Shown here: in pieces, positions 8,101 to 60,646 of the stretch
How positions within the stretch are numbered: the first letter of the stretch is position 1
Layout of the letters: each line of letters begins with the position of its first letter
From: an archaeon
GTDB taxonomy: Archaea > Iainarchaeota > Iainarchaeia > Iainarchaeales > Iainarchaeaceae
Length of the DNA stretch: 64,000 bases
Assembly (NCBI GenBank): GCA_038046625.1
Contig: JBBSVV010000003.1
Location: 4,017-68,016 of the forward strand
Reading direction: 5' to 3'
Notes under the pieces: model-generated
What the model saw: the letters and a program-made list of their open reading frames with translations, nothing else
Database searches by the model: none
Told to the model about the DNA's origin: nothing
Program-made: the position numbers and the translations under genes

Positions 8101-8191
8101 TTTTACTGCACCTCGCCGTTTTCGACCGGCGGTACCGATTGCCCCGCCTTCGGCGGGACTTGGCTCGCTTTGCTCGCAATATAGTTGCTCA

Positions 8192-8890
8192 TCATTGCAC
8201 CGTAACCGTTTGCTGGAACTGGTCCACATTATTTTCCGTGTTTAGGTTAAAATAGATTGTGGTGCCGCCTTTTTGTATCGGTATGAGCGAGTAGTCTATC
8301 TGCTTGCATTCAACAGCCTTGAGCGTTATCGTGTCTGTTTTGTTCGGCTCGGAAAAGAATCCTTTTTCGTGGTTTTCCGCTATTTTCACCTGCTTTTCCG
8401 TTGCGGTGTTGTTGCATGCTTCCACGCTGAACGCAAAGCTCTTGCCGAAGAGTATGTCGCTTGGAAAGCTCATTGTCAGGGTTATTTCCTGCTTTGCCCT
8501 TAGTACAACGAGCTTTTCGATTGTCGAGTGGAAAGGGCTCTGCACAATTATTGTTGCCTGGTTCGCGCTTATAGAGCCGGTGTAAATGCGTTGCTCCTCG
8601 TTGGGCGCAAGTGAAGCAAACATGTTCAGGTCTTTCGGTTCGCCTTCTTCCTCGCGGTATTTCACGGTTACGTTGTTGATTTGCCTGTCGGTGGTGTTTT
8701 TCAGGTAAATTTCCTTTTGGCCGTTTTCCTCGTTGAATTTTTCCTCGATTGCGAGGCCAGTGTTGAACAAAAAAAGGTATATGAGCATTATTCCGAATAA
8801 TGCGTAAACCGCCAGGAAGAAGAATTTCGCTTTTTTCGCTTTTTCCGGCATCATTGTTTTGCATCCCTCATTTTTGCGTTTCCGTTCCAT
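8192..8890 (-). CDS. N-terminally membrane-anchored extracellular protein (hypothetical)
   Basis: Hydrophobic segment FFFLAVYALFGIMLIYLFLF followed by a T/N/Q-rich domain. Start uncertain (possibly MMPEKAKK). Confidence 0.45.
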   Translation of the reverse strand: MERKRKNEGCKTMMPEKAKKAKFFFLAVYALFGIMLIYLFLFNTGLAIEEKFNEENGQKEIYLKNTTDRQINNVTVKYREEEGEPKDLNMFASLAPNEEQRIYTGSISANQATIIVQSPFHSTIEKLVVLRAKQEITLTMSFPSDILFGKSFAFSVEACNNTATEKQVKIAENHEKGFFSEPNKTDTITLKAVECKQIDYSLIPIQKGGTTIYFNLNTENNVDQFQQTVTVQ

Positions 8891-12765: not shown

Positions 12766-12801
12766 CGTATAAAAAACTTTTGCTGTTTTCGCACCGGCAC
12801 G

Positions 12802-12853
12802 CCGGAAACCGCCGGCGGTACGGTGTACTATCTTCGCCTTTGGGCTCGATAGT
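12802..12853 (+). repeat. Structured repeat element, copy A: CCGGAAACCGCCGGCGG module + ACTATCTTCGC-N-GGGCTCGATAGT core
   Basis: Near-identical modules at 19705-19752 and 43774-43825. The core also occurs at 46761-46788, 34380-34392 and 60523-60552. Flanked by direct repeats GCACCGGCA (12791-12799 and 12863-12871). A TATAAAAAA-like box lies ~25 nt upstream (12770-12781). Confidence 0.7.
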
Positions 12854-12917
12854 CCATGCTCCGCACCGGCAACCACCCCCTATATGGTTTTAAAAGCCTC
12901 GAAGATTTGCTTCTTTT

Positions 12918-14813: not shown

Positions 14814-15004
14814 AGCGGGATTCAAAGAAGATTGTGAAGTTCTGTTCCCGCTGCGGCTCAACGGATTTGAAGCCGCTTTATTTCATGGAAGCAATCGACA
14901 ATAGAATGCAGTGCATGGGCTGCAATGTGATTGAATTCCCTGTTGAGGGCACTGAAAAGTTTCGGAAAGAATTTTTGGAGGGAAGTAAAAATGCCGGCAA
15001 ATAA
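14810..15004 (+). CDS. Small zinc-ribbon protein
   Basis: CSRCGS...CMGCN CxxC pairs; 64 aa. Confidence 0.3.
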   Translation: MKRDSKKIVKFCSRCGSTDLKPLYFMEAIDNRMQCMGCNVIEFPVEGTEKFRKEFLEGSKNAGK

Positions 15005-18191: not shown

Positions 18192-19691
18192 ATGCTCCCA
18201 ATTGGAAAGACTTTCCTGTCCCGCATCACTTACCTTTCGGAAAAGAGGCAGGTTGTTGCGGAGTTCTCGAATTCCTCGGAAAAAATTTCCAAGCGTTACT
18301 CTTTCTTTCCCCGTATGCATTTCCCGATGGAGGGGATTTCACAGGGTTCGCTGAAGGAGGTTTTGTCGCTTTATGATTCCAGGCGCTTCAAGGTTGATTT
18401 TGAGGAAAACCGTGCCGTGATTTTTGCCGCCACGTTTTCCGACCTGAAAAAAATAAATAATTTGCTTTCGGATTCCCTGGGCTTTTCCTCGAACCTCATT
18501 GAGCCTGAGAGGCAGTTTCTCATTGACAGGGGCTGGAGCTACTTTGATTCTTTCACTTTTTCTGCGGATGAGCCGCAGAGGGTTTCATCGCTTGATTTTC
18601 CTGATGTGGCGCTCGGCTTTCTCTCCGATTCCCTGCCCATGACGATGCGTGACCTCATTTCATCCAACAGGCAGCTGGCCAGGGAAATCGCGGGCCGCGT
18701 TTCCATGTCGAGGGTACTGCGTATCCCCCTATTGTCTTCGGAAATGCACAGGGCCGCTCCGGAGGTTTTTCTGGAGAATGTTTTTTTCGCTTCAAAAATG
18801 CCTGTCCCCATTTCTCCGGAAAAAAAGCAAAGCATTCCGTTGAGGGTTCCGCATAAGACGGAAATAGATTTTTCCGCGGTTACGCCGCTGCTCTTGTGCA
18901 GGCCGTTCTCGAATGCAGGCCCGGAGACAGTGAACTGTGCCTGCTGCAGGCCGGCTTCGCTGAATGATTTCAATGTCCTTGCGGATACAATTGTGAAGGC
19001 GCGTTTTTTGCGCGAGGGCGCGTATTTCAATTCCGCGTCTTCTTTTTGGGCGGAGCAGTTCCACGTTTCAGGCCGGGACAAGGATGCCAGGTCAAGGAGG
19101 CGCGCCGAGTATAATTACCAGTTTTTTCCCGTGGGGCCTTTTTCGCGGAATGAAACGGCGGAAATTCTTTTGGCGGATGCCGTTGAGCTGCAGGGGCAGG
19201 GCATTGCCGAAATTCTCGGCGTAACGGGGTGGAGCTGGTTTTGTTCACAGAAGGAAAGCGCATTTTCAAGGGAAACGAATGCCCTGCGCGAAACCATTTC
19301 TTCCCTTGAATCTTCCCTGGATAAGGAGCATACTTCCGTTGTTGCATCAAATGGCCTGTTTTTTTCGCAGGCGCTCGAGGCGCGGCTGGATTATTTTTAT
19401 AGGAAGATTTTCCTCGAAACCGCTTCCTCGATTTTGTGTTCGGTTTCCGGCGTGCTTTCCGACAGGTCTTCGGGCTTTTTCTCCCCAAAAATAGCTGTTC
19501 TGCTGGAAGTTGCTTCTTTCCGCATCCTCAAAGGTTTTGAGGAAATATGCTCCTCGAACGGCATTGCAAGGGTTTCCACGGGACCTTCAAAAGCCTTTGT
19601 GGACTCTTCCTCGGTTACGCGCATTTTGAAGGATTTTTCCGAGGCATACAAGTTGAATAGGCCGTTTGTAAGGCTCAAAACCCGTTTTTAA
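18192..19691 (+). CDS. Hypothetical Ser/Phe-rich 499-aa protein sitting between herA and rad50
   Basis: Long uninterrupted ORF with no strong competitor. No Mre11 phosphoesterase motifs and no other recognisable domain. Confidence 0.45.
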   Translation: MLPIGKTFLSRITYLSEKRQVVAEFSNSSEKISKRYSFFPRMHFPMEGISQGSLKEVLSLYDSRRFKVDFEENRAVIFAATFSDLKKINNLLSDSLGFSSNLIEPERQFLIDRGWSYFDSFTFSADEPQRVSSLDFPDVALGFLSDSLPMTMRDLISSNRQLAREIAGRVSMSRVLRIPLLSSEMHRAAPEVFLENVFFASKMPVPISPEKKQSIPLRVPHKTEIDFSAVTPLLLCRPFSNAGPETVNCACCRPASLNDFNVLADTIVKARFLREGAYFNSASSFWAEQFHVSGRDKDARSRRRAEYNYQFFPVGPFSRNETAEILLADAVELQGQGIAEILGVTGWSWFCSQKESAFSRETNALRETISSLESSLDKEHTSVVASNGLFFSQALEARLDYFYRKIFLETASSILCSVSGVLSDRSSGFFSPKIAVLLEVASFRILKGFEEICSSNGIARVSTGPSKAFVDSSSVTRILKDFSEAYKLNRPFVRLKTRF

Positions 19692-19704
19692 CAACCCTTT
19701 CGCG

Positions 19705-19752
19705 CCGGAAACCGCCGGCGGTAGGGCGACTATCTTCGCTTTGCTCGATAGT
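19705..19752 (+). repeat. Structured repeat element, copy B
   Basis: CCGGAAACCGCCGGCGGTAGGGCGACTATCTTCGCTTTGCTCGATAGT, just upstream of rpoK. A TTTTTAACAA TATA-like stretch lies ~25 nt upstream. Confidence 0.7.
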
Positions 19753-19827
19753 AAGGTATTACGCTCGGAACTACCTTTTTTAATTCTTTGCGTAGGAGTA
19801 TTGGTAGATTAATAACTCGTTTTTTGA

Positions 19828-20043
19828 GTGTTTTTGATGGCTAAATTAACCCGTTTTGAAGTGACGCGCCTGATTAGTGCGAGGGCTTTGCAGCTTTCCT
19901 TGGGGGCGCCGGCACTCTCTAAATCAGAAAAAGAAGGGACCCCGATTGATATGGCGCGCGATGAGTTCGCGAAGAAGGTAATTCCTCTCGCGGTTTTGAG
20001 GGAGTTTCCCGACGGGCACGTTGAAAGGGTTGAGGTGAACTGA
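19828..20043 (+). CDS. rpoK: DNA-directed RNA polymerase subunit K (Rpb6/omega homolog)
   Basis: LTRFEVTRLISARALQLSLGAP matches the RpoK/Rpb6 core; ~70 aa. Confidence 0.75.
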   Translation: MFLMAKLTRFEVTRLISARALQLSLGAPALSKSEKEGTPIDMARDEFAKKVIPLAVLREFPDGHVERVEVN

Positions 20044-22368: not shown

Positions 22369-22428
22369 CTGCTATCTAGCACCTGGCAGAGCAAAGCTCT
22401 GCCGGGCCTCGTACCCTACGGGTAGAAG
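22369..22428 (-). repeat. Structured repeat element, copy G (hairpin-module variant)
   Basis: The reverse complement aligns to 34270-34345. GTACCCGTAGGGTAC hairpin is shared. The second hairpin GGCAGAGC-tttg-CTCTGCC covaries with CGCAGAATC-ttct-GATTCTGC(A). Confidence 0.6.
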
Positions 22429-22471
22429 GAACCACATTAAAATGCCGAAAACTTTCGTGGTTTGCTATAAA

Positions 22472-22918: not shown

Positions 22919-22995
22919 TGAAAAAACCTTATTTTTAGCGGCATTATTTGTCTAGTATTCTCTATTGAGTTACCTTTAAAAAGGTTGATTTCAGC

Positions 22996-23021
22996 CTTTT
23001 TCTTTCTTGCGAGAAAGAAAA
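22996..23021. promoter_or_regulatory. TTTTTCTTTCT-tgcg-AGAAAGAAAAA palindrome upstream of the tRNA-like 5' fragment
   Basis: Same inverted-repeat family as the motifs flanking the tRNAs. Confidence 0.45.
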
Positions 23022-23103
23022 ACGCTGGCGAAAAAGAAAGAGACGGGGCATATTTTTGGCCATAGAACCTTTAATTAAGTGTTTTTCACCCATTTTTTTG
23101 CAC

Positions 23104-24286: not shown

Positions 24287-24461
24287 CTGCACTTTCACGC
24301 AGAATCCTTGATTCTGCTGAAACCTGCACTAAAAAGAAAGAGTGCCGGAAAAAGAAAAGACCCCTGTTTCTGGCTCGGCAAGCCGTGCTTGGCCGGTTTC
24401 AATGTGGCCAGGGCTCGCTTTCTTTTAGGCAAGGAATTAATACTCGCAAGTAGTTGTATTT

Positions 24462-34142: not shown

Positions 34143-34240
34143 ATTAACAGCAATTGCCTATAAAGTGTTAAAAACACTTGGAAATCACTTCATTACATGA
34201 CAAGAGTCGCTGTTCTCGAGAAGGACCGTTGCATCACAAC

Positions 34241-34402
34241 AGTTTCGTCTGTTGGGTGCGAGTACTATCTCCTTGTACCCGTAGGGTACGAGGCCTCGCA
34301 GAATCTTCTGATTCTGCAAGGTCGCTTGGGCTCGATAGTAAGTTTGGTTATGGGTGTGAGGCACGATACTTCGCAGTTGACCTGCTTTGCGTTTGGTGAT
34401 GT
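34241..34402 (+). repeat. Structured repeat element, copy E (long form), inserted just upstream of abce1 and preceded by a diverged duplicate of the first 44 nt of abce1
   Basis: Starts ACAACAGTTTCGTCTGTTGGGTGCGA. Contains GTACCCGTAGGGTAC, CGCAGAATCttctGATTCTGC and GGGCTCGATAGT. 34197-34240 repeats 34406-34449 with 5 synonymous differences. Confidence 0.7.
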
Positions 34403-34405
34403 GAA

Positions 34406-36184
34406 ATGACTCGAGTAGCTGTTCTGGAAAAGGACCGTTGCATCAATGGCACGGGCTGTGATTACATATGCGGCCACGTGTGTCCAGTGAACCGCGCGGG
34501 AAAGGACTGCATTGTTCTAGATGAGGTTACAAACAAGCCCGTCATCAGCGAGGAGTTATGCATCGGCTGCAACATATGCGTAATTAAATGCCCCGTGGAT
34601 TGCATTTACATCGAGAACCTTGTCCAGGAACTGAACGAGAATCCTGTGCATCGCTTCGGCGAGAACGCGTTCAGGTTCTACAGGCTCCCCACAATAAGGA
34701 ACGGAGAAGTAGTTGGGTTGATTGGCAGGAACGGAATAGGAAAAAGCACTATCCTGAAAATAATTTCTGGCCAGCTGGTTCCAAATTTGGGGGATTACAA
34801 TTCAAAAGGCTCTTACGATTCGGTGATAAATTTTTTCAAGGGGAAGGAATTGCAGCGGCTTTTTTCCTCGCTGAAAGACAAGCGGATAAAGGTTTCTTAC
34901 AAGCCGCAGAACATAACTGATTTGCCCAAGGCGGCGAAAGGCACTGTGCGCGAACTCCTGAAAAAAACCGATGAGCGCAAAAAACTTTCCGAGGTTTCGG
35001 AGTTGCTGGGCCTCGGAAAAATTTTGGACAGGGAACTCTCGCACTTGAGCGGAGGAGAATTGCAAAGGGTTGCGATTGCCGCGGCCTCATTGAAGGATGC
35101 TGATTTGTATGCTTTTGATGAGCCAACTTCTTATTTGGATGTGAGGGAGCGCCTCAATGCCTCCAAGGTTTTGCGCGGTCTTGCGGAATCCGGAAAGGCG
35201 GTTGTTTTGATTGAGCATGACCTCGCGGTTCTTGATTACTTGAGCGATTATGTGCACCTTCTTTACGGAAAAAAATCGGTTTACGGAATAGTTTCAAAGC
35301 CGAAGAGCGTTCGCAATGGCATTAACGAGTTTTTGGAGGGCTTTGTGAAGGATGAGAATGTTCGGTTCAGGAGCACAGAGCTGAAATTTGAGGTCAAGCC
35401 TTCCACGGATTTCAGGAAAAAGAAAGTTATTGCTAGCTACCCGGAACTCAAAAAGTCCTTCAAGGGATTTTCCCTCGAGGCTGAGGCGGGGGATTTGCGC
35501 GAGGCCGAGGTTCTGGGAATAATGGGCCCCAATGCAATAGGCAAAACGACTTTCGTGAAGATGCTTGCCTCCGTTGAGAAGCCAGATTCAGGGAAGATTG
35601 ATTTTTCCATGCATGTTTCCTACAAGCCACAGTACCTTGTGCCTGAAAAGGGCGTTACTGTTGGTGATTTTATTGATTCTCAGGACCTTGATCTCTCGGT
35701 TTTCAAGAATGAGGTTGACCGAAGGTTGGCAATTACAGAGCTGGAAAATCACTTGCTTGAGGAATTGAGTGGCGGCGAGCTCCAGAAGATTGCTGTCGGA
35801 GTGGCGCTTTCGCGCACGAATTGCGAGCTCGTTCTTTTGGATGAACCAACCGCTTTTGTTGATGTTGAAGATAGGCTGAACATGGCTGATGCAATCCGTT
35901 CCGTAACAGATGCGAAAAAGAAGATTTGCATGGTTGTTGACCACGACATTTTGTTCCAGGATTATGTTTCTGACAGGTTGATGGTTTTTTCTGGCGAGCC
36001 CTCCGTGAAGGGCTTTGCGGGCGCCGCAATGTCAATGCATGACGGGATGAATTCTTTCCTCAAATCGGTTGGAATTTCTTTCAGGCGCGACCCGGAAAGT
36101 GGAAGGCCGCGTGCAAACAAGTTGCATTCGCAGCTCGACCAGGCGCAGAAGAAGAAAGGTGAGTATTACTATCTCGTGGATTGA
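34406..36184 (+). CDS. abce1: ABCE1 / RNase L inhibitor (Fe-S cluster + twin ABC ATPase)
   Basis: N-terminal Cys-rich ferredoxin-like domain (CINGTGCDYICGHVCPV ... CIGCNICVIKCP). Two Walker A/B + LSGGE ABC cassettes. Confidence 0.85.
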   Translation: MTRVAVLEKDRCINGTGCDYICGHVCPVNRAGKDCIVLDEVTNKPVISEELCIGCNICVIKCPVDCIYIENLVQELNENPVHRFGENAFRFYRLPTIRNGEVVGLIGRNGIGKSTILKIISGQLVPNLGDYNSKGSYDSVINFFKGKELQRLFSSLKDKRIKVSYKPQNITDLPKAAKGTVRELLKKTDERKKLSEVSELLGLGKILDRELSHLSGGELQRVAIAAASLKDADLYAFDEPTSYLDVRERLNASKVLRGLAESGKAVVLIEHDLAVLDYLSDYVHLLYGKKSVYGIVSKPKSVRNGINEFLEGFVKDENVRFRSTELKFEVKPSTDFRKKKVIASYPELKKSFKGFSLEAEAGDLREAEVLGIMGPNAIGKTTFVKMLASVEKPDSGKIDFSMHVSYKPQYLVPEKGVTVGDFIDSQDLDLSVFKNEVDRRLAITELENHLLEELSGGELQKIAVGVALSRTNCELVLLDEPTAFVDVEDRLNMADAIRSVTDAKKKICMVVDHDILFQDYVSDRLMVFSGEPSVKGFAGAAMSMHDGMNSFLKSVGISFRRDPESGRPRANKLHSQLDQAQKKKGEYYYLVD

Positions 36185-43224: not shown

Positions 43225-43800
43225 TCACCCACTCTGGCCGAATGTGACTTTTGTTTCGGATCCGATTTTGTCCACTTTTGCAATGAATATGGCGCCCTGC
43301 ACTCCGGTGTTTACCTCACTCGGCGAGCATGAGAATGAGGCTCCTGCATCGAGCTCTTTCGTGCATTTTTTGTCTGCATCAGGATCCAAATCCAAGGCCA
43401 AGTCATCATCCGCATTGTTTTTGCATTCTTCGGGGACGCGGGCTGAAATCTGTTCAAGCCCCGCATCAAGCGGAACAACAAGGTATGAGAAACCTATCCC
43501 TGCAAAGTTCGTGGACGGTGGGGCCGCAGGAACGCAGTAAATTTTTGATTGCGGCGGAATAACAATTTCTATGGTCTGCCTTGTTCCGGCGCCGGATATT
43601 GAAACGTATTGTGCCGCGTTCACGAGCTTGTCGGCAGAGGCGCGGAGCTTCGCGAGGTTTGCGGTGTCGTTCATTGCATTGCTCGCAATGTCCGCGTTCG
43701 GCTGTATTATTGCGACTATGTAAAGCAGTGAAACCACGAGTATGAGCAGAAATTCTATGCTCGCCTGCCCCCGCCGGAAACCGCCGGCGGTATGGTGCCC
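43225..43800 (-). CDS. Pilin-like protein whose N-terminal signal peptide (RRGQASIEFLLILVV) is encoded by repeat element C; start codon unresolved
   Basis: Class III signal motif RRGQAS-IEFLLIL. No in-frame ATG within 50 codons upstream. The coding frame runs through the CCGCCGGCGG palindrome. Confidence 0.4.
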   Translation of the reverse strand, partial: GHHTAGGFRRGQASIEFLLILVVSLLYIVAIIQPNADIASNAMNDTANLAKLRASADKLVNAAQYVSISGAGTRQTIEIVIPPQSKIYCVPAAPPSTNFAGIGFSYLVVPLDAGLEQISARVPEECKNNADDDLALDLDPDADKKCTKELDAGASFSCSPSEVNTGVQGAIFIAKVDKIGSETKVTFGQSG

Positions 43801-43915
43801 TATCTTCGGTTTTGGCCTCGATAGGTCTTGCTTCGCAATTTTCCCGTTCAAAATATCAAGTTCCACAACAGTTTCGGCTGTTGGGTGCGATAGCCCATGC
43901 TGTCGCATGGACTTG
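43774..43915 (+). repeat. Structured repeat element, copy C (module 1 + hairpin module CAACAGTTTCGGCTGTTGGGTGCGATAGCCCATGC), with a diverged duplicate of the prepilin-peptidase gene 3' end
   Basis: CCGGAAACCGCCGGCGGTATGGTGCCCTATCTTCGGTTTTGGCCTCGATAGG, then a ~45-bp direct repeat (43827-43870 versus 43916-43960). Confidence 0.65.
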
Positions 43916-43940
43916 GCGTTGCTTCGCAACGCAGGCTTAT

Positions 43941-45065
43941 TCAAATAATCAAGTTCCATATCAAGTCTCCCGTAAACTGAAGCGCAATGTACGCAATGAG
44001 GATTGCGGGAACAAATGCCGCGGTTTTTCTCACGACCAGTTGCTTCGGCGCATTTCCCTGCAAAGCTTTTTTCCTGAGTTCTTTCGCCGCCTCTTCCGTA
44101 AGCCCTCCCGCCTCGCGCGGGCTCGAAAACACGTTCCCAGGGACTTTGTATGCCTTGAGGGCGTTTTCAATTTTATTATCCATTAACTGCTTAATAACAC
44201 TTTTTATGCTCGGCGCCTCGACAGGAATTATTTTCCCTCCTTTTTCCACAAGGTAATAATCCGGAATCATTCCTTCCGTGATTTTTGCGGTTTCAATTTT
44301 TTCCCTGAACGCAAATTCGCGGCTCTCTGCATAAAGTTTCCACAGGAAATAAACGCACACCAGCGGAACCGCTATCGCTATCGAGTTGAACAAAAGGTTT
44401 TGCGCCGAAACCAGCAGGCCGGCAACGGCTGAAATTATTATTGCCGCGTTCCTCGCCTTTTTTGGGATGAAAGCTGCGGCAACCATTATGGGGAGCACCC
44501 AGAACAATTCAATCCCGGATTTTGAAAGAATGGTTTCAACGCCAGCGGCAAAAATTCCGGCGCCGAGAATGCCAGTTGCTTTTGATGCTACGGCTTTCAT
44601 CGTCCTCGCGAAAACTTCTTTGTGCTTCAATGAGGCCGTAAGCGCCATCAGGATTCCGAGCGGCAGCATGGAAAATATTGATGCCACTATGAGCGTTACC
44701 GCAAAAATCGGCAGCGGGGTTGTTGAAAGCAATTGGCCTTGCAGCCCGAGCGCGTCCCTGAGGATTCCGTAATTTACGGGGTTGATTATTGCGAGCGCTG
44801 TAACAAGCTTGACATCGCCTCCCGCCCACGCGCCCATCCTGTAGAGCGCGTATGAAACCACAAAGGCAATTGTGGCAGCGGCGAATGCAAATAATATTGG
44901 TTCGATTGCCTGTGCATTCAGCGATTCAAAAATTTTTAGTATTATGCCGGTTCCGGCTATTGTGTAAGTGAGCCTGTTCGGAACAATCCGTTTCCTGAGG
45001 TCGGTATAGGTTGCAATGAGCAGTGTTATGAGTGTTAAAAAAAAGTATAGGGAGGAAAACACCAT
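43941..45065 (-). CDS. Prepilin/pre-archaellin peptidase (A24 family, PibD/FlaK-like) with a C-terminal extension
   Basis: Polytopic membrane protein. N-terminal DLRKRIVPN aspartyl-peptidase motif and a second Asp in ...AWAGGDVKL. Confidence 0.65.
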   Translation of the reverse strand: MVFSSLYFFLTLITLLIATYTDLRKRIVPNRLTYTIAGTGIILKIFESLNAQAIEPILFAFAAATIAFVVSYALYRMGAWAGGDVKLVTALAIINPVNYGILRDALGLQGQLLSTTPLPIFAVTLIVASIFSMLPLGILMALTASLKHKEVFARTMKAVASKATGILGAGIFAAGVETILSKSGIELFWVLPIMVAAAFIPKKARNAAIIISAVAGLLVSAQNLLFNSIAIAVPLVCVYFLWKLYAESREFAFREKIETAKITEGMIPDYYLVEKGGKIIPVEAPSIKSVIKQLMDNKIENALKAYKVPGNVFSSPREAGGLTEEAAKELRKKALQGNAPKQLVVRKTAAFVPAILIAYIALQFTGDLIWNLII

Positions 45066-45591: not shown

Positions 45592-45732
45592 TCAGCCGAT
45601 TTTATTGGCTTCGCCGCCAATGCTGCCGACCAGGCTTTTCAGGAAGAAGCCTATCGCGGCCGCAACCACGACCGCAGCCCCGAGAAGCAAAAGCACTTCT
45701 ATGGAACTTTGGGCTTTTTCTCCTTCAAGCAT
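45592..45732 (-). CDS. Small pilin (46 aa)
   Basis: Hand-translated MLEGEKAQSSIEVLLLLGAAVVVAAAIGFFLKSLVGSIGGEANKIG. Confidence 0.45.
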   Translation of the reverse strand: MLEGEKAQSSIEVLLLLGAAVVVAAAIGFFLKSLVGSIGGEANKIG

Positions 45733-46688
45733 TATCCGGCACCTCCAACCAACAGGCCTGAGAGTATCTCCGCAGCTATGTAGGCTGAATATGCGATAAA
45801 CAAGAGGATTGGGAAGTATATAATACTTTTCCCGGCCTTTCCGTCGCGCATGATGCTTATCATCACGCTTGTGATCGCCGTTTCAATGAAGATGTACGCT
45901 TCTATCGAGATGCTTATTATGCCGAGCGCCTTTATGGCTGAAGCCTGTTCCGCGGCCGAGGCCACTCCTGCTGACGCGGTGAGGAGTACGTGCGTTATTG
46001 TTGAGACAAATCCGAAAATCATGGGTGCGATTGCGCCTCCCGCTGCAAACATGAATATTACCTGCATTGCGGTTCTCGCCTTTCTGTCCTTGTTTATCCT
46101 GAATGCCTCGCGCACATCCTCCGAAATTTCTTCGAGCACTCCAGCAAGGCCCGCCCCTGCCCTCACAGAGTCGATTATTATCGTTATTGTCCTCTTCACG
46201 AGCCTCGAATCCACGTTTTCGGACAGTGTTTTGAGCGAGTTGTCGAAGTTTTCGCCTTCCTCGAGCTTCCTGAGCACTTCGTTCATTTCCTTTTTCAATG
46301 GCCCGTATTCTGATGTCGCGATTTCCCTCAATGCATACTCGTATGTTCCCCCTGCCTTTAGGGTGTCCGCCATCTGCCTCAATGCGTCGGGCAGCGCTTC
46401 CTCTATTTCCTCAATTCTTTTTACCGCCATCAGGTATGGGTAACCAATCATGAGGTCGATAACCACGACGAACGCGAGCACGCCGACCTGTATGTTCCTC
46501 GTTATTCCCGCCTGCCCCAAAAAGTACCAAGTGCTCAACCCGATAATTACGGAAGCGAGCACCGAGAGCATTATCCAGAGCACTGGGTCCACCCTGAATT
46601 CCGCGCTTCTCAGGTAGTCCGCATATTTCTGCACGAACTGGATTTTGTTTATCAGCGGTATCTTGCTTGCAAGCCTTAGGGCCATTTC
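45732..46688 (-). CDS. FlaJ/TadC/PilC-like polytopic membrane platform protein (T2SS F domain), copy 1
   Basis: Start at MALRLASK. Two repeats of the cytoplasmic-domain + 3-TM pattern. Confidence 0.6.
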   Translation of the reverse strand, partial: EMALRLASKIPLINKIQFVQKYADYLRSAEFRVDPVLWIMLSVLASVIIGLSTWYFLGQAGITRNIQVGVLAFVVVIDLMIGYPYLMAVKRIEEIEEALPDALRQMADTLKAGGTYEYALREIATSEYGPLKKEMNEVLRKLEEGENFDNSLKTLSENVDSRLVKRTITIIIDSVRAGAGLAGVLEEISEDVREAFRINKDRKARTAMQVIFMFAAGGAIAPMIFGFVSTITHVLLTASAGVASAAEQASAIKALGIISISIEAYIFIETAITSVMISIMRDGKAGKSIIYFPILLFIAYSAYIAAEILSGLLVGGAG

Positions 46689-46702
46689 ATCCCCTCCTCC
46701 CG

Positions 46703-46788
46703 CACAATAGTTTCGTCCGAGAATGCGCCTCGGAAGGGTGCCAAGATTGTTGGGTACGACTGCTATCTTCGCCGTGGGGCTCGATAGT
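46703..46788 (+). repeat. Structured repeat element, copy D, at the junction between the two tandem flaJ-like genes
   Basis: ...GGGTACGACTGCTATCTTCGCCGTGGGGCTCGATAGTAA. Flanked by imperfect direct repeats TTCATCCCCTCC (46687-46698) / TTCATCCCACC (46814-46824) that contain the stop/start junction GGGATGAAA. Confidence 0.6.
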
Positions 46789-46813
46789 AAAAACATTTGC
46801 GTGTGTCATTTTT

Positions 46814-47968
46814 TCATCCCACCTTCGGTTGGGTTATTTTTAAGTAGAACACGAGGAACCCAAGCACAAGCGGCATTGCAACCAAATAAATTGCCGCTAT
46901 TGCTATCGGGGACAATGCAACGCTTCCCACGGAAATCGGTGCATTGGTTATGGAGCCTATTATTCCGATGAAAACCGGCACCACTATTGCGGCGAAAATG
47001 TATATTACTCCGAAGAAGTTCATTTTTTCCGAGAACTCGCGGACCGCAATGCGCATGTCGAAGCTCACGTCCTCGGCAATTGTGTTCATTATGTCCGAGA
47101 GGTTTCCCCCGGTTTTCATTGCGCGTATTATGTGCAGGAGCGCGTTGCGCAGCGCCTTTGACTGTGTCCTTAAAGCGAAGTGCCTTAGCGCGTCTTTCGT
47201 GTCCGTTCCTTCCTCGACCTCGTTTATTGTGCGCGCGAATTCTTCGCTCAGCACGCCGTAATCTGAGGTCGCTATTGTCTGCAGTGTTTTGTAGAGGCCT
47301 ATTCCGGACTTTAATTCGGTCGCCATGTGCCTCAATGCGAAGGGCAGCTCCACGCTCATGGCGTCGCCCCTTCTTTGTGCGTTGCTTTTCGGTACGAGCA
47401 TCAGCGCTACAAGCGCGAACATTCCCACTGCGCCGGAAATGAGGATTGAGTAAAGCAGGTTCACCTTGTACACGAAGCTCAGTGCGGCAATGATTGCAAA
47501 TGAAAATATTCCCGCAAGCGTTGCGGCCGCAAGGGAAAGCGCGAGCCATTGCTGGAGCGAGTACTTCATGTTTGCGGAGTAAAGGTAATACCGCACATCA
47601 TTCGCGAGCGGCAATTTTTTTATGAGGCGTGAAACCGGGTCAAGCGGCAGCCTGAGCATCAGGTAAAGTTTTCCAAGGCTCTTTATCGCAGGGCTCTGGA
47701 ATTCCTGCAAATCTTCAACGGTCTGGACGTTTATTTTTGCCTGTTCGCCCTCGGCAATTATTCCCCTCAGCTCCCCAAGCTTTCCCCCGACTTCCTCGAA
47801 TTCAATGCCCTGTTCACGGTACTTTTTTTTCATGCGGTCGACTATTTTTTCTACCTTGTCCATGTCCACGGTTTCCTGCGCGTCCTTTCCCGCAGTCGTC
47901 TGCTTTTTTTCTTCCTTTTTTTCCTCGATTTTTTTTCTCAGGTCGCTCAAAGTGCTCATGGTGTTCAC
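46814..47968 (-). CDS. FlaJ/TadC/PilC-like membrane platform protein, copy 2
   Basis: Same architecture as 45732-46688; 384 aa. Confidence 0.6.
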   Translation of the reverse strand: MNTMSTLSDLRKKIEEKKEEKKQTTAGKDAQETVDMDKVEKIVDRMKKKYREQGIEFEEVGGKLGELRGIIAEGEQAKINVQTVEDLQEFQSPAIKSLGKLYLMLRLPLDPVSRLIKKLPLANDVRYYLYSANMKYSLQQWLALSLAAATLAGIFSFAIIAALSFVYKVNLLYSILISGAVGMFALVALMLVPKSNAQRRGDAMSVELPFALRHMATELKSGIGLYKTLQTIATSDYGVLSEEFARTINEVEEGTDTKDALRHFALRTQSKALRNALLHIIRAMKTGGNLSDIMNTIAEDVSFDMRIAVREFSEKMNFFGVIYIFAAIVVPVFIGIIGSITNAPISVGSVALSPIAIAAIYLVAMPLVLGFLVFYLKITQPKVG

Positions 47969-50900
47969 TTTTTTTTCATTGAGTACTGCTTTACCGCTTC
48001 GGAGATTTCTTTCATGCTTCTCCTGTTTTCCTTCACGAGCTTTTCGAGGTATGCCGCCCTGTCCTTGACCTCGTCATCAAAGTCCTTTTTGGACATTCCC
48101 GCGAGTTCCTGGAGTTTTTGGGCGTAATTTATCTGGGCTTTTGTCCTTTTTAGGGAGTCTGTTACCGGGTCGCGCAGGTATACGGCTTCGGTTTTCGGCT
48201 TGCCTTCAAGGGCGCCGGTCACTTGGGCAATTTCGGTTATTCTCCTTATTGTCCCCATTTTCCTGTCGTGCAGCCTGTGCTGTACAACTATTATGTCGAG
48301 CCCGGAAAGCATTACTTGCGGCACGTTCATCGGCGGGTTTGTCACCCTCACGATTGTTTCCTGTGCCGAGTTTGCGTGCACTGTTCCGAGTGAATTTCCC
48401 ACGATTATTCCCTGTGCCACGAAATTATGGGGGTTCCTGCCGGTTTGCCTTTCTTCGCTTACCGTCAGGTCATATACAAATCCGTTGTATGGGTATGAGT
48501 GTATGGCAATTACCTTATCCCAGAAAATGTCGGATTCCGCGAGCAGCTTAAGCTTTGAGGATTCAATTCCCGCAGATTCAAATGCCTTGGCGAGTGCCCC
48601 GACTGCACGCCTGCTCGGCGTCCTTTCCCTTCTTTTGTAAAAACTTATTGCTCCTTGTGTTAATCCTGCCATTCTCGCAATTTCAGAATTGCTGTACCCC
48701 TTTTCTTTTTTTGCCGTTTTGAGCAGTTTTATTATGGTGCCGTTGCATTCTATGGTGTCGGTATTCGTGTTGCTTTCTTTTCCCCTGCCGAGCAGTTCCT
48801 CTATTTTCCTTATTTTTTCGGGGAATTTTACCGGGTAGGTTTTGTAGAATTTTTCCACTTGGTCTATTCCATAAATATAGAGCCTGTACCATCTGCTGTT
48901 GTGTGCGCGTGACTCGTATTTTCTGGAGGTTATCCCTTCCGTCAATAATGCATAGCGGAAAAAATCTATGTAGTGCTCGTTTGCGCATGAAATGACGATT
49001 GCATTGTTGTTTGCATCAACATGCCCTTCTGCGTCAAAAAAGCCCGCGACAAACCCGCGCAGGGAGTTCGTGTAGTGTGAATTGGACATTTTTGCTTTCT
49101 GCCTGCTTCCCGCGGGGATGTCAAGCATTTCCATAATCTTTGCGGTTTTCTTGAACCCGCTTATGTGCGCTTCATAGCATTGCTTTTGCGGGCGCGGGTT
49201 CACTATTTTCACGTGTGTCCCATCGAGGTTTTCTTTCATGTAATTTATGAATTTCGGGATTATGGTTTCCTCTTCTGTGTAGAGGTTTATTGAGCCTTCA
49301 TTGCACAGGTATTGCTTGCCGTTTTTTTTCCTTTGCCTTTTGTAATAGGTTATGTTTCCGTCACCGTGCAGCAGGCCACTCCAGTATTCGCTCTCGGTTT
49401 CTTTTGCGTTTTCTTCCCTGAGCAGCTTTCTCGGGGTTGCAATGTTTTGCCCTTCCTTGAGAGTGTCCGCCCTTGCCTGTTGAATGTTGTCCGCAAGAGT
49501 ATAGAATGGGTGGTTTCCCGTGCAGGTTAGTTCGCTGCCGGAAGCAAGCTTTATGTGGTAAACGTTGCCTGTGAAAGGCCTGCGCCTTGCCTGCACGATT
49601 TTTTGCCTGTTCACTTTCCCTTTGCCGTCCACAGAGTTGATGTGCTCATCGCCCACAGTGCACACTTCCCACTCTCCTTCTTTCCGGCTGCCGTTTTTCT
49701 GCAGTTGCTCTTCCGTGAATTGGCCGATTTCGCGTATTCCCGAAGTCAGCGCTATTTTTGCTTCGCCCGTAAGGCAACCGTCATGCCCCGTGTTGAATGC
49801 CGTGAACAATGAGAACGCCTCATCATGCCTGATTTCGCCGACAATTATCCTGTCAGGGCGCATTCTCAGGGAATTTTTCGTGAGTATGTCAAGCGTTACC
49901 TCTCCGGTTCCTTCAAGCCCAGGCGGCCTTGCTTCCATCCTTATCCAGTGCTTCAAGGGAAGGTTCAGTTCGGCCGTGTCCTCAATGGAAATTATCCTTT
50001 CTGTTTCCGGTATGAATGTTGCGAGCACGTTCAGCGTTGTGGTTTTTCCGGAGCCGGTTCCGCCTGAAATCAGTATGTTTGCGGGTTTCGTGCCCAAGCC
50101 ATCGGTGCATGCCCACAGGAATGCGGCGGTTTCCGCTTCAATGGTTTTGTTTTTTATGAGGTCTATTATTGTGTAAGGGTCTTCGCGGAACTTTCTTATT
50201 GTCAATGTGGAGCCCTGCACCGAAGCGGGGGGAATTGTTGCGTTGACCCTGCTTCCATCAGGGAGTCTCGCATCAAGGAGCGGGCTGCTGATGTCCACCC
50301 TTCTTCCTATTTGCCTTGCAATCCTGTTCACGAGATCCTGTATTTCATTGTCGTTGTAGAACTCGATGTTCGTTATCATCATTCCGTATTTCCTGTGGAA
50401 AATGTAAACCGGCCTGTTCGGCGCGATGACCATTATTTCCTCGAGCTTGTCATCGTGAATCAGGTCGTCTATTATTCCGTACCCTATCATTTCCCGTATT
50501 ACCGTGTTCGCATAAAAATCAAACCGCGTTTTTGGTATGTTGAGTTCCGGGGAGTCGCGGAGAATCTCAAGCACTTTCTGGTAGTAAACGTTCTTTCTCT
50601 GCTCCGGGTCGCGGATCTTGTAAGGCGTAATGCTGATTACCCTTGTCGCGGCCTCCTTGATGGTGTTGATTATTGTTTTTTCCGCCCCCACAGGCCTTGG
50701 CACGGGTATCCAGTAGTAAAGCAGGGGCTGTCCCGGGAGCTCGTAAATTTTGGCGTTTCCATAGGAATCAATGAGCTTTTTTTCGGATGTTTCCAGTTCC
50801 CTTTCCGCGGTGGATTTTTGTTCCTCGGGAACGCTTTCCGGGTTTTGCGGCGCGTTGATATTTTCCTGTGGCGGGAGCGTGCTCTTTATTTCCGCTATTT

Positions 50901-51204
50901 TCTGCTTGGCCAGCATCACTTCTTTGGCGGCTTTCTTCTCTTCATCTTCCTTGTCCTCGCTTTGCGCCTTTTCAGGTTCTTCGCTGCGCATCTGCTCAAG
51001 TATAAGGTTTTTTTTGCCCGGCAATGGCTTCGGTTCCGTGTGCCATGGCTTTTTCCCCTGGGCTTGTTGAATCTGTGCGGGATTTTTTTTTGCGGGCTCG
51101 GGCTTCACGGCTTTTTTTTGCGCGGCGTCTTCCGGCTTTCCGGGTTGTTTTGCGTCTTTTTTTGCCTTTGCCTTTTCAAATAGCGCGTCGAGATAATCTG
51201 GCAT
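47965..51204 (-). CDS. FlaI/PilB/VirB11-like secretion ATPase with a K/E/P-rich N-terminal extension, interrupted by a 461-aa LAGLIDADG intein (nt 48394-49776)
   Basis: Walker A ISGGTGSGKTTTLNVL. The His box is split FNTGHDG|CLTGEAKIAL...GIIVGN|SLGTVHANS. Intein endonuclease blocks LLHGDGNI and FVAGFFDAEGHV. Confidence 0.8.
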   Translation of the reverse strand: MPDYLDALFEKAKAKKDAKQPGKPEDAAQKKAVKPEPAKKNPAQIQQAQGKKPWHTEPKPLPGKKNLILEQMRSEEPEKAQSEDKEDEEKKAAKEVMLAKQKIAEIKSTLPPQENINAPQNPESVPEEQKSTAERELETSEKKLIDSYGNAKIYELPGQPLLYYWIPVPRPVGAEKTIINTIKEAATRVISITPYKIRDPEQRKNVYYQKVLEILRDSPELNIPKTRFDFYANTVIREMIGYGIIDDLIHDDKLEEIMVIAPNRPVYIFHRKYGMMITNIEFYNDNEIQDLVNRIARQIGRRVDISSPLLDARLPDGSRVNATIPPASVQGSTLTIRKFREDPYTIIDLIKNKTIEAETAAFLWACTDGLGTKPANILISGGTGSGKTTTLNVLATFIPETERIISIEDTAELNLPLKHWIRMEARPPGLEGTGEVTLDILTKNSLRMRPDRIIVGEIRHDEAFSLFTAFNTGHDGCLTGEAKIALTSGIREIGQFTEEQLQKNGSRKEGEWEVCTVGDEHINSVDGKGKVNRQKIVQARRRPFTGNVYHIKLASGSELTCTGNHPFYTLADNIQQARADTLKEGQNIATPRKLLREENAKETESEYWSGLLHGDGNITYYKRQRKKNGKQYLCNEGSINLYTEEETIIPKFINYMKENLDGTHVKIVNPRPQKQCYEAHISGFKKTAKIMEMLDIPAGSRQKAKMSNSHYTNSLRGFVAGFFDAEGHVDANNNAIVISCANEHYIDFFRYALLTEGITSRKYESRAHNSRWYRLYIYGIDQVEKFYKTYPVKFPEKIRKIEELLGRGKESNTNTDTIECNGTIIKLLKTAKKEKGYSNSEIARMAGLTQGAISFYKRRERTPSRRAVGALAKAFESAGIESSKLKLLAESDIFWDKVIAIHSYPYNGFVYDLTVSEERQTGRNPHNFVAQGIIVGNSLGTVHANSAQETIVRVTNPPMNVPQVMLSGLDIIVVQHRLHDRKMGTIRRITEIAQVTGALEGKPKTEAVYLRDPVTDSLKRTKAQINYAQKLQELAGMSKKDFDDEVKDRAAYLEKLVKENRRSMKEISEAVKQYSMKKK

Positions 51205-58177: not shown

Positions 58178-58927
58178 ATGGATTTGCGCGGAGCATTGAA
58201 CAGGTATCTGAAGAATTTTTCCACTGCATTTTCTTTCGTTTTGCTTTTGGTGTTCGTTCTTCCATTCATTCTTGGCAAGGAGGGCGAGTTTCTTGCGAGT
58301 TCCTTTGTTTCCTCGGCAACCGTTTTCATTGACTATGGGTTCATCAACGAGCCGCTTCTTAACTCGGCCCTTCTTCTCGCGCTGGCGTTTGTTTTCCTTT
58401 TCTGCTACTCCGTGCTTGTCTGCCTAATGGTTCTTGCGGTGAGAGGCGATTTGAGCAACGTGAAGATGAATAATTACCTCGCGGAAAAAATCGGGAAGTT
58501 CGCTTTCAGGTACTTCAGGTTCCTCGCGCTCTTCACGATTATTGCGTCCATTGCGGGGGCAATTCTCATTGCTTACGGTCTGCCTATCTGGGTGCTGAAT
58601 TTGCTGCTGATGTTTTTGTCGGCTTCGTTCCTTTTCTTGCCCCAGACAATCGTGGTTGATGAGGAAAGCCTGGGCAGCTCCATTTTCAGGAACTGGGACT
58701 TCATTTCGAAGAACATGTTTTCTTTTGTGCAGGTCCTGGCCCTCGGAGTCGTGAGCCTGTTCCTGCTCCAGCTCATAGAATTTGCCCTTGATTACTTCTT
58801 TTTTGTCGGGAGCTTCGTTTCCCTGCTCATCGGGGTTGTTTTCCTCGTGCCTTTCATCGAGGTGGTGAAGACACAGATTTACATGCACCGGTTCGGCCTG
58901 ATCAAGAGCTATCATCCTTCAGGCTGA
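58178..58927 (+). CDS. Polytopic membrane protein (hypothetical)
   Basis: Six or more TM helices; no recognisable domain. Confidence 0.4.
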   Translation: MDLRGALNRYLKNFSTAFSFVLLLVFVLPFILGKEGEFLASSFVSSATVFIDYGFINEPLLNSALLLALAFVFLFCYSVLVCLMVLAVRGDLSNVKMNNYLAEKIGKFAFRYFRFLALFTIIASIAGAILIAYGLPIWVLNLLLMFLSASFLFLPQTIVVDEESLGSSIFRNWDFISKNMFSFVQVLALGVVSLFLLQLIEFALDYFFFVGSFVSLLIGVVFLVPFIEVVKTQIYMHRFGLIKSYHPSG

Positions 58928-60596
58928 GCTTTACGGCCGGGCAGTCGTTCAGCAATTCAAGCGCCTCCTTCATTGTTTCGGCCACGTAAACAAACCCGTA
59001 TTTTCTCTTTTGCCTTGTGCCCCTCATGCTGAACAGCATTTCCTGCACCAGTTTTCTGTCCTCGTGCAGGCCGAACCTGCGTTCGGCTTCAGGTTCCGGC
59101 ATTTCCATTGCGGCCAGGTTGTGCCTGTGAATCAGCGCAATTATGTCGTCCGCGAGCTTCGGCGCGTCCGCAACGCCCATTGTTTCGGCGCAGCGCTTTA
59201 TTCCGGCAAGGCTTACAGCGCCAAGGCTTTTCAGGAGCATCCATTCCTCGAAGTAAGGCCTTGCCTTCAGCCCCTCCTTTTTCTTTTCGCATAATCCTGA
59301 AATTTTTTCCGCAATAATCTCCAGCCTTTCAATGAAGCGCTCCTCGTTTCCTGATTCCAAAGCTATTTTTTCCAGGTTTATTGCGGTGAGCTGAAGTACG
59401 CCGTCCGCGTTCCCGGTCAATACTCCAAACTGGTACGCGGTGGTTTTTTCGCTTGAGTTGTTCAGCACCAGTGCGTTGTTGAGGCCGCTTTTTTCGAGCA
59501 GCTTGAGCTGGTACTTGGAGTCGATTGATACGCTAAGTTCGAACTCTTCCGGGTTCGAGGAAAGCAGCATTGCCGCAATGGCAGTCGCGTTCTCCTTTCT
59601 CTTTGAAAGGCCTTCCCATTCGTAGCCGCTGAAGAGCGCAAGTTCGGCGCAGCGCTTCCCCGTAATAGAGAATATTTTTTCTGTCTCCAAGATTTCTTCG
59701 CGGAGTTTCCTCGGGTTCACGGGCTTTTCCGGCGCGATGGAAAAATTGAATGCCTTCAGCGTAACCGGGTTCGTGCAGAACCTGTCGAGTTTTGCGGCCT
59801 CGACAGGCGTCGCATAAGTTTTTTCCCCTGCAAAGAATTTCGAGTGCGCAAAAGTTTTCGTGGAAAAATCTTCGGCACCGTAAATGTGTATCGTGCCGTT
59901 GAAATGCAGTTCCCTCGCGTCCTTTGTTATGGCTGAGAGCCAGTTGTACTCCCTGAGTATTTCCCTGTCCTCGAACAATCCTGCGTTCAGCCTCTTTTTC
60001 ACCTCGAATACCGGGAGGCCGAGGCGCACGTACTGGCCGTGTATCGGCTCGTGGCCGTATTCAAGCAGCTTCACGTTCACCATTTCGCGTATTATATGGG
60101 TGTTCAGATACCCTATTTTCAGGTCCTTTATCTTGTCCTCCACTTCGCTCCCGATTTTTTCTGCAACGTGCCTGCTGATGCCTGTTTCCTTGAGCAGCGA
60201 CTTGATTATGTTGCCGCGGTCGAAAGACTCGAGCTTTTCGCGTGAAGTGAATACCTTGAGTTCCTCGAATGAAATGAATGTTTTTGCCGCCTCGGGATTG
60301 AGCTTTTCGAGCGTTTCCGCGGCCTTTCTCCTGAGCTGCTTTTCCCCGCCTTCAAAAGATTCGAGCTCCTTGATTACCTTCACCACTTCCCACTTAGTGG
60401 CGCCGCTCTCCTGGCATTCGAACGCTATCCTCTGTATTACTTCGCTGATGGGTTTTTTCTCTTCCACAGATGCTTTTAGTTCAAAAAAGTTCTTTAAATT
60501 GCCGCATCCTCTTGTATTTTTTACTATCGAGCCCTCAAAAGGCGAAGATAGTTGCCCCAACGGGTCGGCAGCAAGAAATGTTGGGCGTATATTCAT
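58902..60596 (-). CDS. ATP-cone-containing, ribonucleotide-reductase-like protein (function uncertain); the annotated N-terminus runs into repeat element F
   Basis: ATP-cone-like segment (...HVAEKIGSEVEDKIKDLKIGYLNTHIIREMVNVKLLEYG). No clear glycyl-radical or CxxC tail was seen. Confidence 0.35.
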   Translation of the reverse strand: MNIRPTFLAADPLGQLSSPFEGSIVKNTRGCGNLKNFFELKASVEEKKPISEVIQRIAFECQESGATKWEVVKVIKELESFEGGEKQLRRKAAETLEKLNPEAAKTFISFEELKVFTSREKLESFDRGNIIKSLLKETGISRHVAEKIGSEVEDKIKDLKIGYLNTHIIREMVNVKLLEYGHEPIHGQYVRLGLPVFEVKKRLNAGLFEDREILREYNWLSAITKDARELHFNGTIHIYGAEDFSTKTFAHSKFFAGEKTYATPVEAAKLDRFCTNPVTLKAFNFSIAPEKPVNPRKLREEILETEKIFSITGKRCAELALFSGYEWEGLSKRKENATAIAAMLLSSNPEEFELSVSIDSKYQLKLLEKSGLNNALVLNNSSEKTTAYQFGVLTGNADGVLQLTAINLEKIALESGNEERFIERLEIIAEKISGLCEKKKEGLKARPYFEEWMLLKSLGAVSLAGIKRCAETMGVADAPKLADDIIALIHRHNLAAMEMPEPEAERRFGLHEDRKLVQEMLFSMRGTRQKRKYGFVYVAETMKEALELLNDCPAVKLSLKDDSS

Positions 60597-60646
60597 TTGT
60601 CGACCCGTTGTCCGCCGTGGGCCTGCGGCGCGAAACTGTTGTTCGG
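60523..60646 (-). repeat. Structured repeat element, copy F (minus-strand orientation)
   Basis: The reverse complement reads GAACAACAGTTTCGCGCCGCAGG...GGGGCAACTATCTTCGCCTTTTGAGGGCTCGATAGTAAAA. Confidence 0.6.

Follow-up and report, generated by a model that had tools for sequence, protein, structure and literature searches.

What lies between two tandem pilus genes of an archaeon of the Iainarchaeaceae, and how did it come to rest between the stop codon of one and the start codon of the next? The locus belongs to a 64,000-nucleotide (nt) window, the whole stretch of DNA analysed here, on contig JBBSVV010000003.1 of assembly GCA_038046625.1; all coordinates are window coordinates and the relevant genes are all on the minus strand. 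The upstream gene, delimited from the open reading frame (ORF) list, encodes a TadB/FlaJ-like protein of 384 amino acids (aa) (46814..47968) and ends in the stop codon TGA at 46816-46814, and the downstream gene encodes a TadC/FlaJ-like protein of 317 aa (45732..46685). Each carries one Pfam T2SSF domain (PF00482; E 8e-21 and 9e-19, respectively), and the two are tandem paralogs with 28% identity (E 3e-24). Homologs of the downstream protein are nearly all 310-325 aa long, and its start was therefore placed at MALRL, with the ATG at 46685. The spacer between the two genes measures 128 nt and is bounded by GGGATGAAA at 46812-46820 and again at 46685-46693. A sequence-only reading had placed a repeat element at the stop/start junction of two flaJ-like genes, flanked by a duplication of about 10 bp. 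The element indeed lies within this spacer, the duplication is recovered as the 9-mer on both sides, and flaJ-like is acceptable as a family label for two genes with T2SSF domains in a pilus-type locus. We consider it likely that the insert, hereafter copy C, belongs to a non-coding mobile family rich in hairpins, a copy of which inserted at the tadB/tadC-like junction and was tolerated because expression of the genes was preserved.

The comparison with related genomes that the sequence-only reading had called for supports an insertion. In four more distant Diapherotrites genomes (L017-L020, where L numbers denote loci from related genomes, other archaeal metagenome-assembled genomes (MAGs) and metagenome contigs; TadC 67-72% identical), gene order is kept and the two T2SSF genes abut, with no spacer and no core motif of the element at any of the four junctions. 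These read TGAaaaaATG, TAAcATG, TGAaacATG and TAAaaaaATG, with a spacer of 1-4 nt (in sequence context gtgTGAaaaaATGgca, gttTAAcATGgca, gtgTGAaacATGgcg and gtgTAAaaaaATGacg). The tadB-like stop and the tadC-like start were hence ancestrally adjacent, 1-4 nt apart, and not overlapping as had been supposed. GCA_043812975, whose pilus junction is empty, carries the element family at ABCE1 (L022, 29 bits); as this genome hosts the family elsewhere, its pilus junction is a true empty site. None of the TadC homologs checked had an N-terminal extension of the kind that would betray an independent insertion at this junction. In the nearest genome compared, Ca. Iainarchaeum andersonii SCGC AAA011-E11 (GCA_000402355; 96-98% identical over the locus), the element occupies the identical junction and is 32 nt shorter than copy C. 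The shared insert shows that insertion took place before the window organism and I. andersonii diverged, and the length difference shows that a 32-nt hairpin was either nested later in the element of the window lineage or lost in I. andersonii.

The left boundary of copy C reads GGGATGAaaaaATGac and the right boundary GGGATGAaATGgcc. The left junction copy of GGGATGAAA (46812..46820) holds the upstream stop, where relatives read TGA-aaaa-ATG, and is followed by AAA-ATG (46809-46807) at the ancestral position of the start codon. The right junction copy (46685..46693) is preceded by the Shine-Dalgarno (SD)-like GGAGGAGG, and its last A opens the TadC-like start codon (46685-46683). Between the two lies an inserted element of 118 nt (46694..46811). 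By itself the 9-mer is only moderately significant, as 17 of 300 shuffles also produced a direct repeat of at least 9 nt between the flanks and GGGATGAAA occurs once more in the window, at 44464 (3 observed versus 1.08 expected). It becomes convincing because both copies carry a stop, an A-run and an ATG and because the junction of the relatives is uninterrupted. The presence of stop, A-run and ATG on either side of the insert implies that the ancestral junction was duplicated; the duplication probably takes in the ATG as well and is then about 13 nt long, its two copies differing by 3 nt in the A-run.

Copy C folds into two hairpins. Hairpin H1 (46760..46790), whose pairing is backed by covariation, contains the 25-nt core CTATCGAGCCCCACGGCGAAGATAG (46763-46787), and hairpin H2 (46703..46752), of the CAACA...TGTTG type, is interrupted in its loop by the nested 32-nt hairpin (46716-46747) that is missing in I. 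andersonii. The order H1, 10-nt linker, H2 is common to all archaeal copies. H1 has an outer stem of 5-8 bp, an asymmetric GA/GAA internal loop, an inner stem of 3 bp and a tetraloop, and the H2 sequence varies among subfamilies, yet pairs in every case. The core pattern CTATCGAG[C/G]CCnnnn[C/G]CGAAGATAG occurs three times in the window versus none expected. A covariance model derived from ten copies detects at least seven in the 64 kb (at 12.8k, 19.7k, 34.2k, 43.8k (twice), 46.7k and 60.5k), with a weak eighth match at 8.1k, and also matches I. andersonii, several other archaeal MAGs and metagenome contigs; scores in the window, in I. andersonii and in the other archaeal MAGs lie between 30 and 72 bits. 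In 16 copies taken together, 91.5% of cells pair versus 75.6% in shuffles, double-sided changes number 38 versus 14.2 expected (0 of 500 shuffles reach 38), and slid pairing registers collapse. Copies are 62-193 nt long and occur at a density of about one per 8 kb; most are sense-oriented, with both orientations relative to transcription represented. Three window copies share an identical 20-nt H2, ACCGCCGGCGGTTTCCGGCG, which implies recent spread, and three others form a second subfamily with CAACAG.CGAAACTGTTG. In Rfam, only tRNAs reached the gathering threshold and nothing relevant matched the element even at E up to 10, and we found no account of such elements in Diapherotrites or DPANN archaea in the literature. 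The family, found in Iainarchaeia-type (Diapherotrites, DPANN) archaea, is apparently undescribed.

Other copies in the window reveal how the family enters its targets. Copy A (element at 12800-12861, minus strand, 70 bits) is flanked by an exact 10-nt direct repeat, TGCCGGTGCG (12790..12871). The copy at 19.7k (19664..19857, H1-H2 at 19701-19754, minus strand, 47 bits), antisense to its neighbours, lies between two copies of a stretch of about 24 nt containing the RpoK start (19664-19688 and 19832-19857). At 34.2k (34197..34445, minus strand), an element with an expanded H1 apex is placed antisense between two copies of the ABCE1 start, the first 40 nt of the gene being present at both 34197-34236 and 34406-34445 (plus strand). 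The duplications at 34.2k (16 nt exact) and at copy A (10 nt) were matched by 0 of 300 shuffles. Copies B1 (43866-43939) and B2 (43772-43839) are in-frame insertions of 93 and 66 nt without stop codons in the region of a pilin gene that encodes the signal peptide (43772..43958, minus strand). A duplication of 19 nt encloses B1 (43940-43958 and 43847-43865, 17 of 19 positions identical), and the native 19-mer is single-copy in I. andersonii, whose pilin represents the empty allele: it has neither B1 nor B2, with flanks about 96% identical. This presence/absence polymorphism documents recent mobility, since the split from the closest sequenced relative. The remaining plus-strand copy, the only one in that orientation, lies in a divergent intergenic region and has an expanded H2 (60521..60640, 30 bits); the weak match at a gene junction (8103..8195, minus strand, 11 bits) is a probable degenerate copy. 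Duplication length thus varies (9-13, 10, 19, about 24 and 40 nt) and usually includes the start codon of the neighbouring gene, and at B1, ABCE1, RpoK and copy A it is unambiguously native target sequence that has been duplicated. The elements end exactly at the base of H2 in copies A, B1, B2 and 34.2k, in both L004 copies and in L008 and L014, their 5' extent is variable, and the junctions show microhomology (GTGCG at copy A, TG at B1 and 34.2k).

The inserts are handled in translation in two ways, by a bridging short ORF or by in-frame read-through. Eight copies at gene junctions or gene starts are crossed over their whole length by an ORF that sets out from the upstream start-codon copy or from an ATGA/GTGA overlap, and in seven of the eight this ORF ends no more than 4 nt from the downstream ATG (-1 at copy C and 0, 0, +4, +4, -2 and -4 at the others). 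The bridging ORF of copy C has 40 codons (MTHANVF...GRRG*, 46687..46809, minus strand; 1.4% of shuffles), starts at the ATG of the left junction copy and terminates in the duplicated TGA, at a distance of 1 nt from the ATG at 46685. At 34.2k it has 70 codons (34197-34409, plus strand) and ends in an ATGA overlap with the real ABCE1 start, and at 8.1k it has 30 codons, starts in an ATGA overlap and stops 2 nt before the next ATG. The chance of such an ORF is 1-20% per site, with a product of about 2e-9 over six independent sites. Short ORFs that end at the downstream ATG imply selection for translational coupling. A conserved small protein was dismissed as an explanation, as the copies use different frames (LSSPKAKI versus TIEPHGEDS) and the peptides are not conserved. 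Read-through is seen in the pilin. Its leader in relatives and in I. andersonii is short, ME.N...(K/R)G|QAS(I/V)EF, with an upstream in-frame ATG in I. andersonii giving MEPNILKMERG|Q; in the window it reads MELDYLNK[31 codons]ELDILNGK[22 codons]RG|QASIEF. The signal peptide has been enlarged from about 11 to 64 residues by B1 and B2, and the former internal ATG has decayed. NCBI starts this protein (locus tag AABW99_00500) at a GTG (213 aa); counted from the native overlapping ATG at 43959, its length is 244 aa.

Archaea are known to couple translation by termination-reinitiation where stop and start codons overlap or nearly adjoin (PMC6728339, PMC10666635). Stops and starts at the inserts likewise overlap or lie 0-4 nt apart; in the coupled pairs, however, ribosomes pass directly from gene to gene, whereas here passage would be relayed through an extra ORF encoded by the insert. 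At copy C, the duplication was probably made at insertion as a long staggered target duplication, comparable to the 10-40 nt at other copies, in which case the uninterrupted ancestral junction would read ...GTGGGATGAAATGGCC. The insert probably survived because the left copy keeps the upstream stop while its ATG opens the 40-codon ORF, and the downstream gene might still be translated, either by termination-reinitiation or by SD-led initiation via GGAGGAGG. A genome with hardly any intergenic DNA may keep only translatable insertions that duplicate the stop/start region, and such selective retention would explain why nearly all duplications contain a start codon.

Several observations weigh against insertion of a mobile element with duplication of its target at this junction. 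The relatives with empty sites are too diverged (67-72% aa) to define the boundaries of copy C to the base, and the upstream gene ends in ..V-G-* in the window versus ..V-* in the relatives, so that the exact ancestral junction can only be inferred. The duplication-defined termini (A, B1, B2, 34.2k, C) share no terminal inverted repeats (TIRs), a TIR-like ATGACAC/GTGTCAT pair having turned out to be a nested antisense copy in L006. A Pfam scan found transposase, integrase, HUH or reverse-transcriptase domains in 0 of the 38 window proteins, and the case for translation of the short ORFs and for their coupling comes from sequence alone. Moreover, left junctions read ATG|ACA(C) in four independent full-length copies (C, L004 (twice), L006), the right end of copy C, TGCG..GGAGG..GAT.TGAA-ATG, resembles those of L006 and L004, and a matrix of matched versus mismatched flank similarities has no diagonal dominance and hence no clear site specificity. 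There might then be no true duplication at copy C at all: the element would come with a head (ATG-ACAC...) and a tail (SD-like GGAGG..., TGA, A) of its own, be directed to start codons by microhomology or by a preference for such targets and donate a new SD, stop and start context. The right GGGATGAAA would be part of the element, its match to the left flank would be due to functional convergence or to gene conversion at a later time, and the uninterrupted junction would read ...GTG(GGA)TGAAAAATGGCC. Such a composition would also fit the right junctions of all junction copies, ..TGA(A)|ATG, the likeness of the right arms of C, L003 (the I. andersonii ortholog) and L006 over about 24 nt, the common end GCAGCGGTTGA(A)ATG of both L004 copies, and the right junction copy of I. 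andersonii, which is identical to GGGATGAAA at only 8 of 9 positions. We nevertheless regard it as unlikely, since other copies duplicate native sequence that the element cannot carry (pilin, ABCE1 and RpoK starts; copy A), and since flank pairs share site-specific strings, namely ATT(T)GAATGA at L006, AAACGG..GGTGCA at 8.1k and AGG.GGGATGAA at copy C. Part of the identity of the two GGGATGAAA copies could also stem from microhomology-guided joining and not from a staggered cut. Under either reading the spacer has been inserted and there are two copies of the stop/start context. Of the earlier proposal of insertion with target-site duplication, insertion is therefore upheld by the empty sites, and the duplication is supported with the reservation that part of it may be carried by the element at copy C.

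Could the spacer instead be a functional, cis-acting RNA of the pilus operon, such as a protein-binding hairpin like the L7Ae-type kink-turn (K-turn), a site that governs processing or stability, or a means to set the TadB/TadC protein ratio, and not a selfish element? Its core is near-invariant across distant MAGs, with a conserved asymmetric GA/GAA loop, the structure is backed by covariation, the insert has been kept since the split from I. andersonii and most copies are sense-oriented. The core also contains GGCGAAGA / GAGCC, which we take to be reminiscent of the Kt-7 K-turn. The register speaks against it: covarying pairs outside the 25-mer (A-U, C-G, G-C at -1/+1) fix 5-8 Watson-Crick pairs and an internal loop of 2x3 nt, where a K-turn would have a bulge of 3 nt next to tandem sheared G.A pairs. 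An operon-specific function is further at odds with the four relatives that lack the element at this junction, with its occurrence in unrelated contexts and in both orientations, including antisense in tRNA introns, and with the lack of an Rfam match. While this makes an original cis-acting role very improbable, exaptation of an element as a cis-acting RNA is possible. Removal of the insert, be it by splicing at a bulge-helix-bulge through the archaeal endonuclease or by ribosomal bypassing, would agree with family members within tRNA introns (L012, L014) and with duplicated upstream ABCE1 codons that differ only synonymously in two lineages, a pattern to be expected of codons that become part of a protein. 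The tRNA copies, however, sit inside a canonical 37/38 intron as its cargo, and the element is missing from the 24-nt intron of a paralogous tRNA. Inspection revealed neither exon-intron complementarity nor a bulge-helix-bulge, with its 4-bp helix between two 3-nt bulges, around copy C, the pilin has a decayed internal ATG and a frame open through both inserts, as read-through predicts, and the bridging ORFs end at the downstream ATG. We find an intron-like insert barely credible on these grounds.

In function, the family comes closest to the palindromic elements of Rickettsia and to other intragenic repeats that resemble transposable elements of the miniature inverted-repeat type (MITEs) (PMC10969869, PMC1779305). 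Like the Rickettsia elements, the family consists of small (here about 60-190 nt), non-coding hairpin repeats in a reduced, gene-dense genome, located between genes, in RNA genes and in-frame in protein genes (here the pilin). It differs from them in being archaeal and unrelated in sequence, and in its long, variable start-codon duplications and bridging ORFs. Archaeal MITEs are listed only for Sulfolobus (SM1-4), haloarchaea, Desulfurococcus and a few others (PMC10969869). As in prokaryotic MITEs, copies are short, numerous, non-autonomous, flanked by direct repeats, polymorphic among relatives and prone to nesting, whereas here the core is conserved over very distant MAGs, the remainder covaries like a structured RNA and no cognate insertion sequence (IS) was identified; without TIRs and with a duplication of about 9-40 nt in place of one of fixed length, this is not a classical MITE. 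REP (repetitive extragenic palindromic)/BIME/REPIN and ERIC sequences are likewise imperfect palindromes with conserved asymmetry, transcribed in operons and often intercistronic, yet the present family is also inserted in coding regions and tRNA introns. REPs need RAYT transposases and leave their targets unduplicated; a REP/REPIN identity was discarded, since our hairpins are duplication-flanked and no RAYT or Y1/HUH gene was found in the window. Derivation from IS200/IS605, whose insertions lie 3' of a fixed tetra- or pentanucleotide and duplicate nothing, does not fit the differing left flanks (TTA, GGA, GAC, GGC ...) and the duplication of native sequence. By reading only, ACCCAAC...GTTG loosely fits the R''/R' of integron attC-like sites, while the CGCCGG...CCGGCG subfamily does not. 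Viral carriage was not supported either, as IMG/VR returned only a match to phage radical-SAM-like coding sequence, a chance match also seen in metagenomes, and bacterial matches to the core lacked the inner stem and appeared at about the expected chance rate.

How the family moves is a matter of speculation. Judged by its anatomy, target-primed insertion of a small structured RNA or single-stranded DNA would fit better than a cut-and-paste DDE transposon, because TIRs are lacking, the 3' end is usually at the base of H2, the 5' extent is variable, junctions show microhomology, duplications are long and variable, copies nest in hairpin loops and subfamilies are few. The mobiliser might also belong to one of the IS families that leave long direct repeats of variable length. 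With short interspersed nuclear elements (SINEs) and other non-long-terminal-repeat (non-LTR) elements the family shares a defined 3' end (the H2 base, in at least eight copies), a variable 5' extent, microhomology at the 5' junction and variable duplications, and its subfamilies are consistent with few source genes, the analogy being drawn from anatomy only; it differs in having no A-rich tail and no reverse transcriptase or endonuclease identified among the 38 window proteins. It is tempting, if quite doubtful, to suppose that the elements are copies of a structured small RNA placed by a SINE-like target-primed process, of which only those that duplicate a start codon survive, with the relay ORF at ABCE1 perhaps being autoregulatory. 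We know of no SINE-like retroposon in archaea, and if this supposition is true, the family would be the first retroposon-like repeat family in that domain.

The family as a whole is of more interest than the one locus. The genomes of DPANN archaea are tiny and tightly packed and are commonly held to contain few mobile repeats; this family occupies operons, gene starts, a signal peptide and tRNA introns. It provides a concrete example of how insertions are tolerated in a compact genome, either through a duplicated junction with a short ORF or through in-frame read-through of a leader that the prepilin peptidase cleaves off. It also leads gene callers to extend or mis-start neighbouring genes, the TadC-like protein having been deposited with 354 aa and the pilin with 213 aa. 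The conserved 25-nt hairpin offers a handle for finding the mobilising enzyme, and if this enzyme acts by target-primed insertion, the elements would represent a new kind of mobile element for archaea.

Further copies are found in diverse settings. At ABCE1, the gene of the ribosome-recycling factor, the first 13 codons (MTRVAVLEKDRCI) occur twice in the window, and L022 (1390-1540) has the same layout with a 24-nt duplication of 8 codons, while L023 (1345-1560) has a single copy. The duplicated codons differ only synonymously, with 5 differences from copy to copy per genome and 8 between the two upstream copies, and this pattern suggests purifying selection on the upstream peptide. An in-frame version is found in a third homolog, P0125 (639 aa). 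The ABCE1 duplication may possibly represent an autoregulatory upstream ORF or involve bypassing or splicing. In L014 (397-553, plus strand), a full two-hairpin element lies antisense in a canonical 37/38 tRNA intron, its H2 end abutting the exon, and L012 (about 215-405 and 50-144, minus strand) has the element likewise antisense inside a canonical 37/38 intron; the L012 tRNA has an apparent second intron in the T-loop, and the same-type tRNA neighbouring an element-bearing one has a plain 24-nt intron and no element. In L008 (88-216, minus strand), an element copy runs right up to the 5' end of the tRNA-Ile(UAU) gene and is preceded by a TATA-like box. This copy is a candidate source gene, from which RNase P cleavage would free an RNA with the exact 3' end of the family; 19701-19754 and 60521-60567 in the window are further candidates. 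In L004 (= L010), copies at 1401-1517 and 3334-3391 (minus strand) occupy consecutive junctions of an apparent RNA polymerase operon, between rpoB''-like and rpoB'-like and between rpoB'-like and rpoA'-like genes (identified by N-terminal sequence only), each within a bridging ORF of 31 or 38 codons. Back in the window, the longest ORF of a 564-aa gene with a weak ATP-cone match (58902-60596, minus strand) starts upstream of the 60.5k element and crosses it antisense (..GQLSSPFEGSIVKN..), either as an N-terminal in-frame insertion or as a mis-extended start. A 33-nt hairpin module (GGCCTCGTACCCTACGGGTA.AAGG) is part of the expanded H1 apex at 34.2k (34270-34302) and stands alone at 22398-22430; sub-hairpins seem to move or nest independently.

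The locus that harbours copy C is type IV pilus-like (Tad/Epd-style) rather than an archaellum locus, with no archaellin genes noted. A T2SSE ATPase gene with an intein (47965-51204, minus strand) precedes both T2SSF genes, and 3' of the pair follow small pilin genes, a prepilin peptidase gene (Peptidase_A24, 43941-45065, minus strand) and more pilin-like genes, all three domain assignments being based on Pfam. Together with the T2SSF domains, the ATPase, the peptidase and the pilins mark the pair as a T2SSF/TadB-TadC/FlaJ platform, and the pilin-like genes show the G|QASIEF cleavage motif of class III signal peptides. The T2SSE intein comprises Intein_splicing, LAGLIDADG and HTH domains; the I. 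andersonii ortholog (618 aa) and L019 lack it, L018 and L020 have it, and L021 (184-2040) belongs to the same comparison. A second T2SSE ATPase gene, at 26448-28016 (plus strand), has no intein, and a HerA-like helicase (DUF87, 14931-18041) is likewise intein-bearing. A free-standing ORF with a LAGLIDADG_3 domain (153-1049, minus strand) adjoins tRNA-Gly genes. The window also contains a separate family of A/T-rich palindromes (TTTTTCTTTTC...GAAAAGAAAAA), at 1845-1895, 3730-3780, 3851-3877, 3961-4011, 22995-23045 and 24312-24362, which mostly lie beside tRNA genes and are probably promoter or terminator signals.

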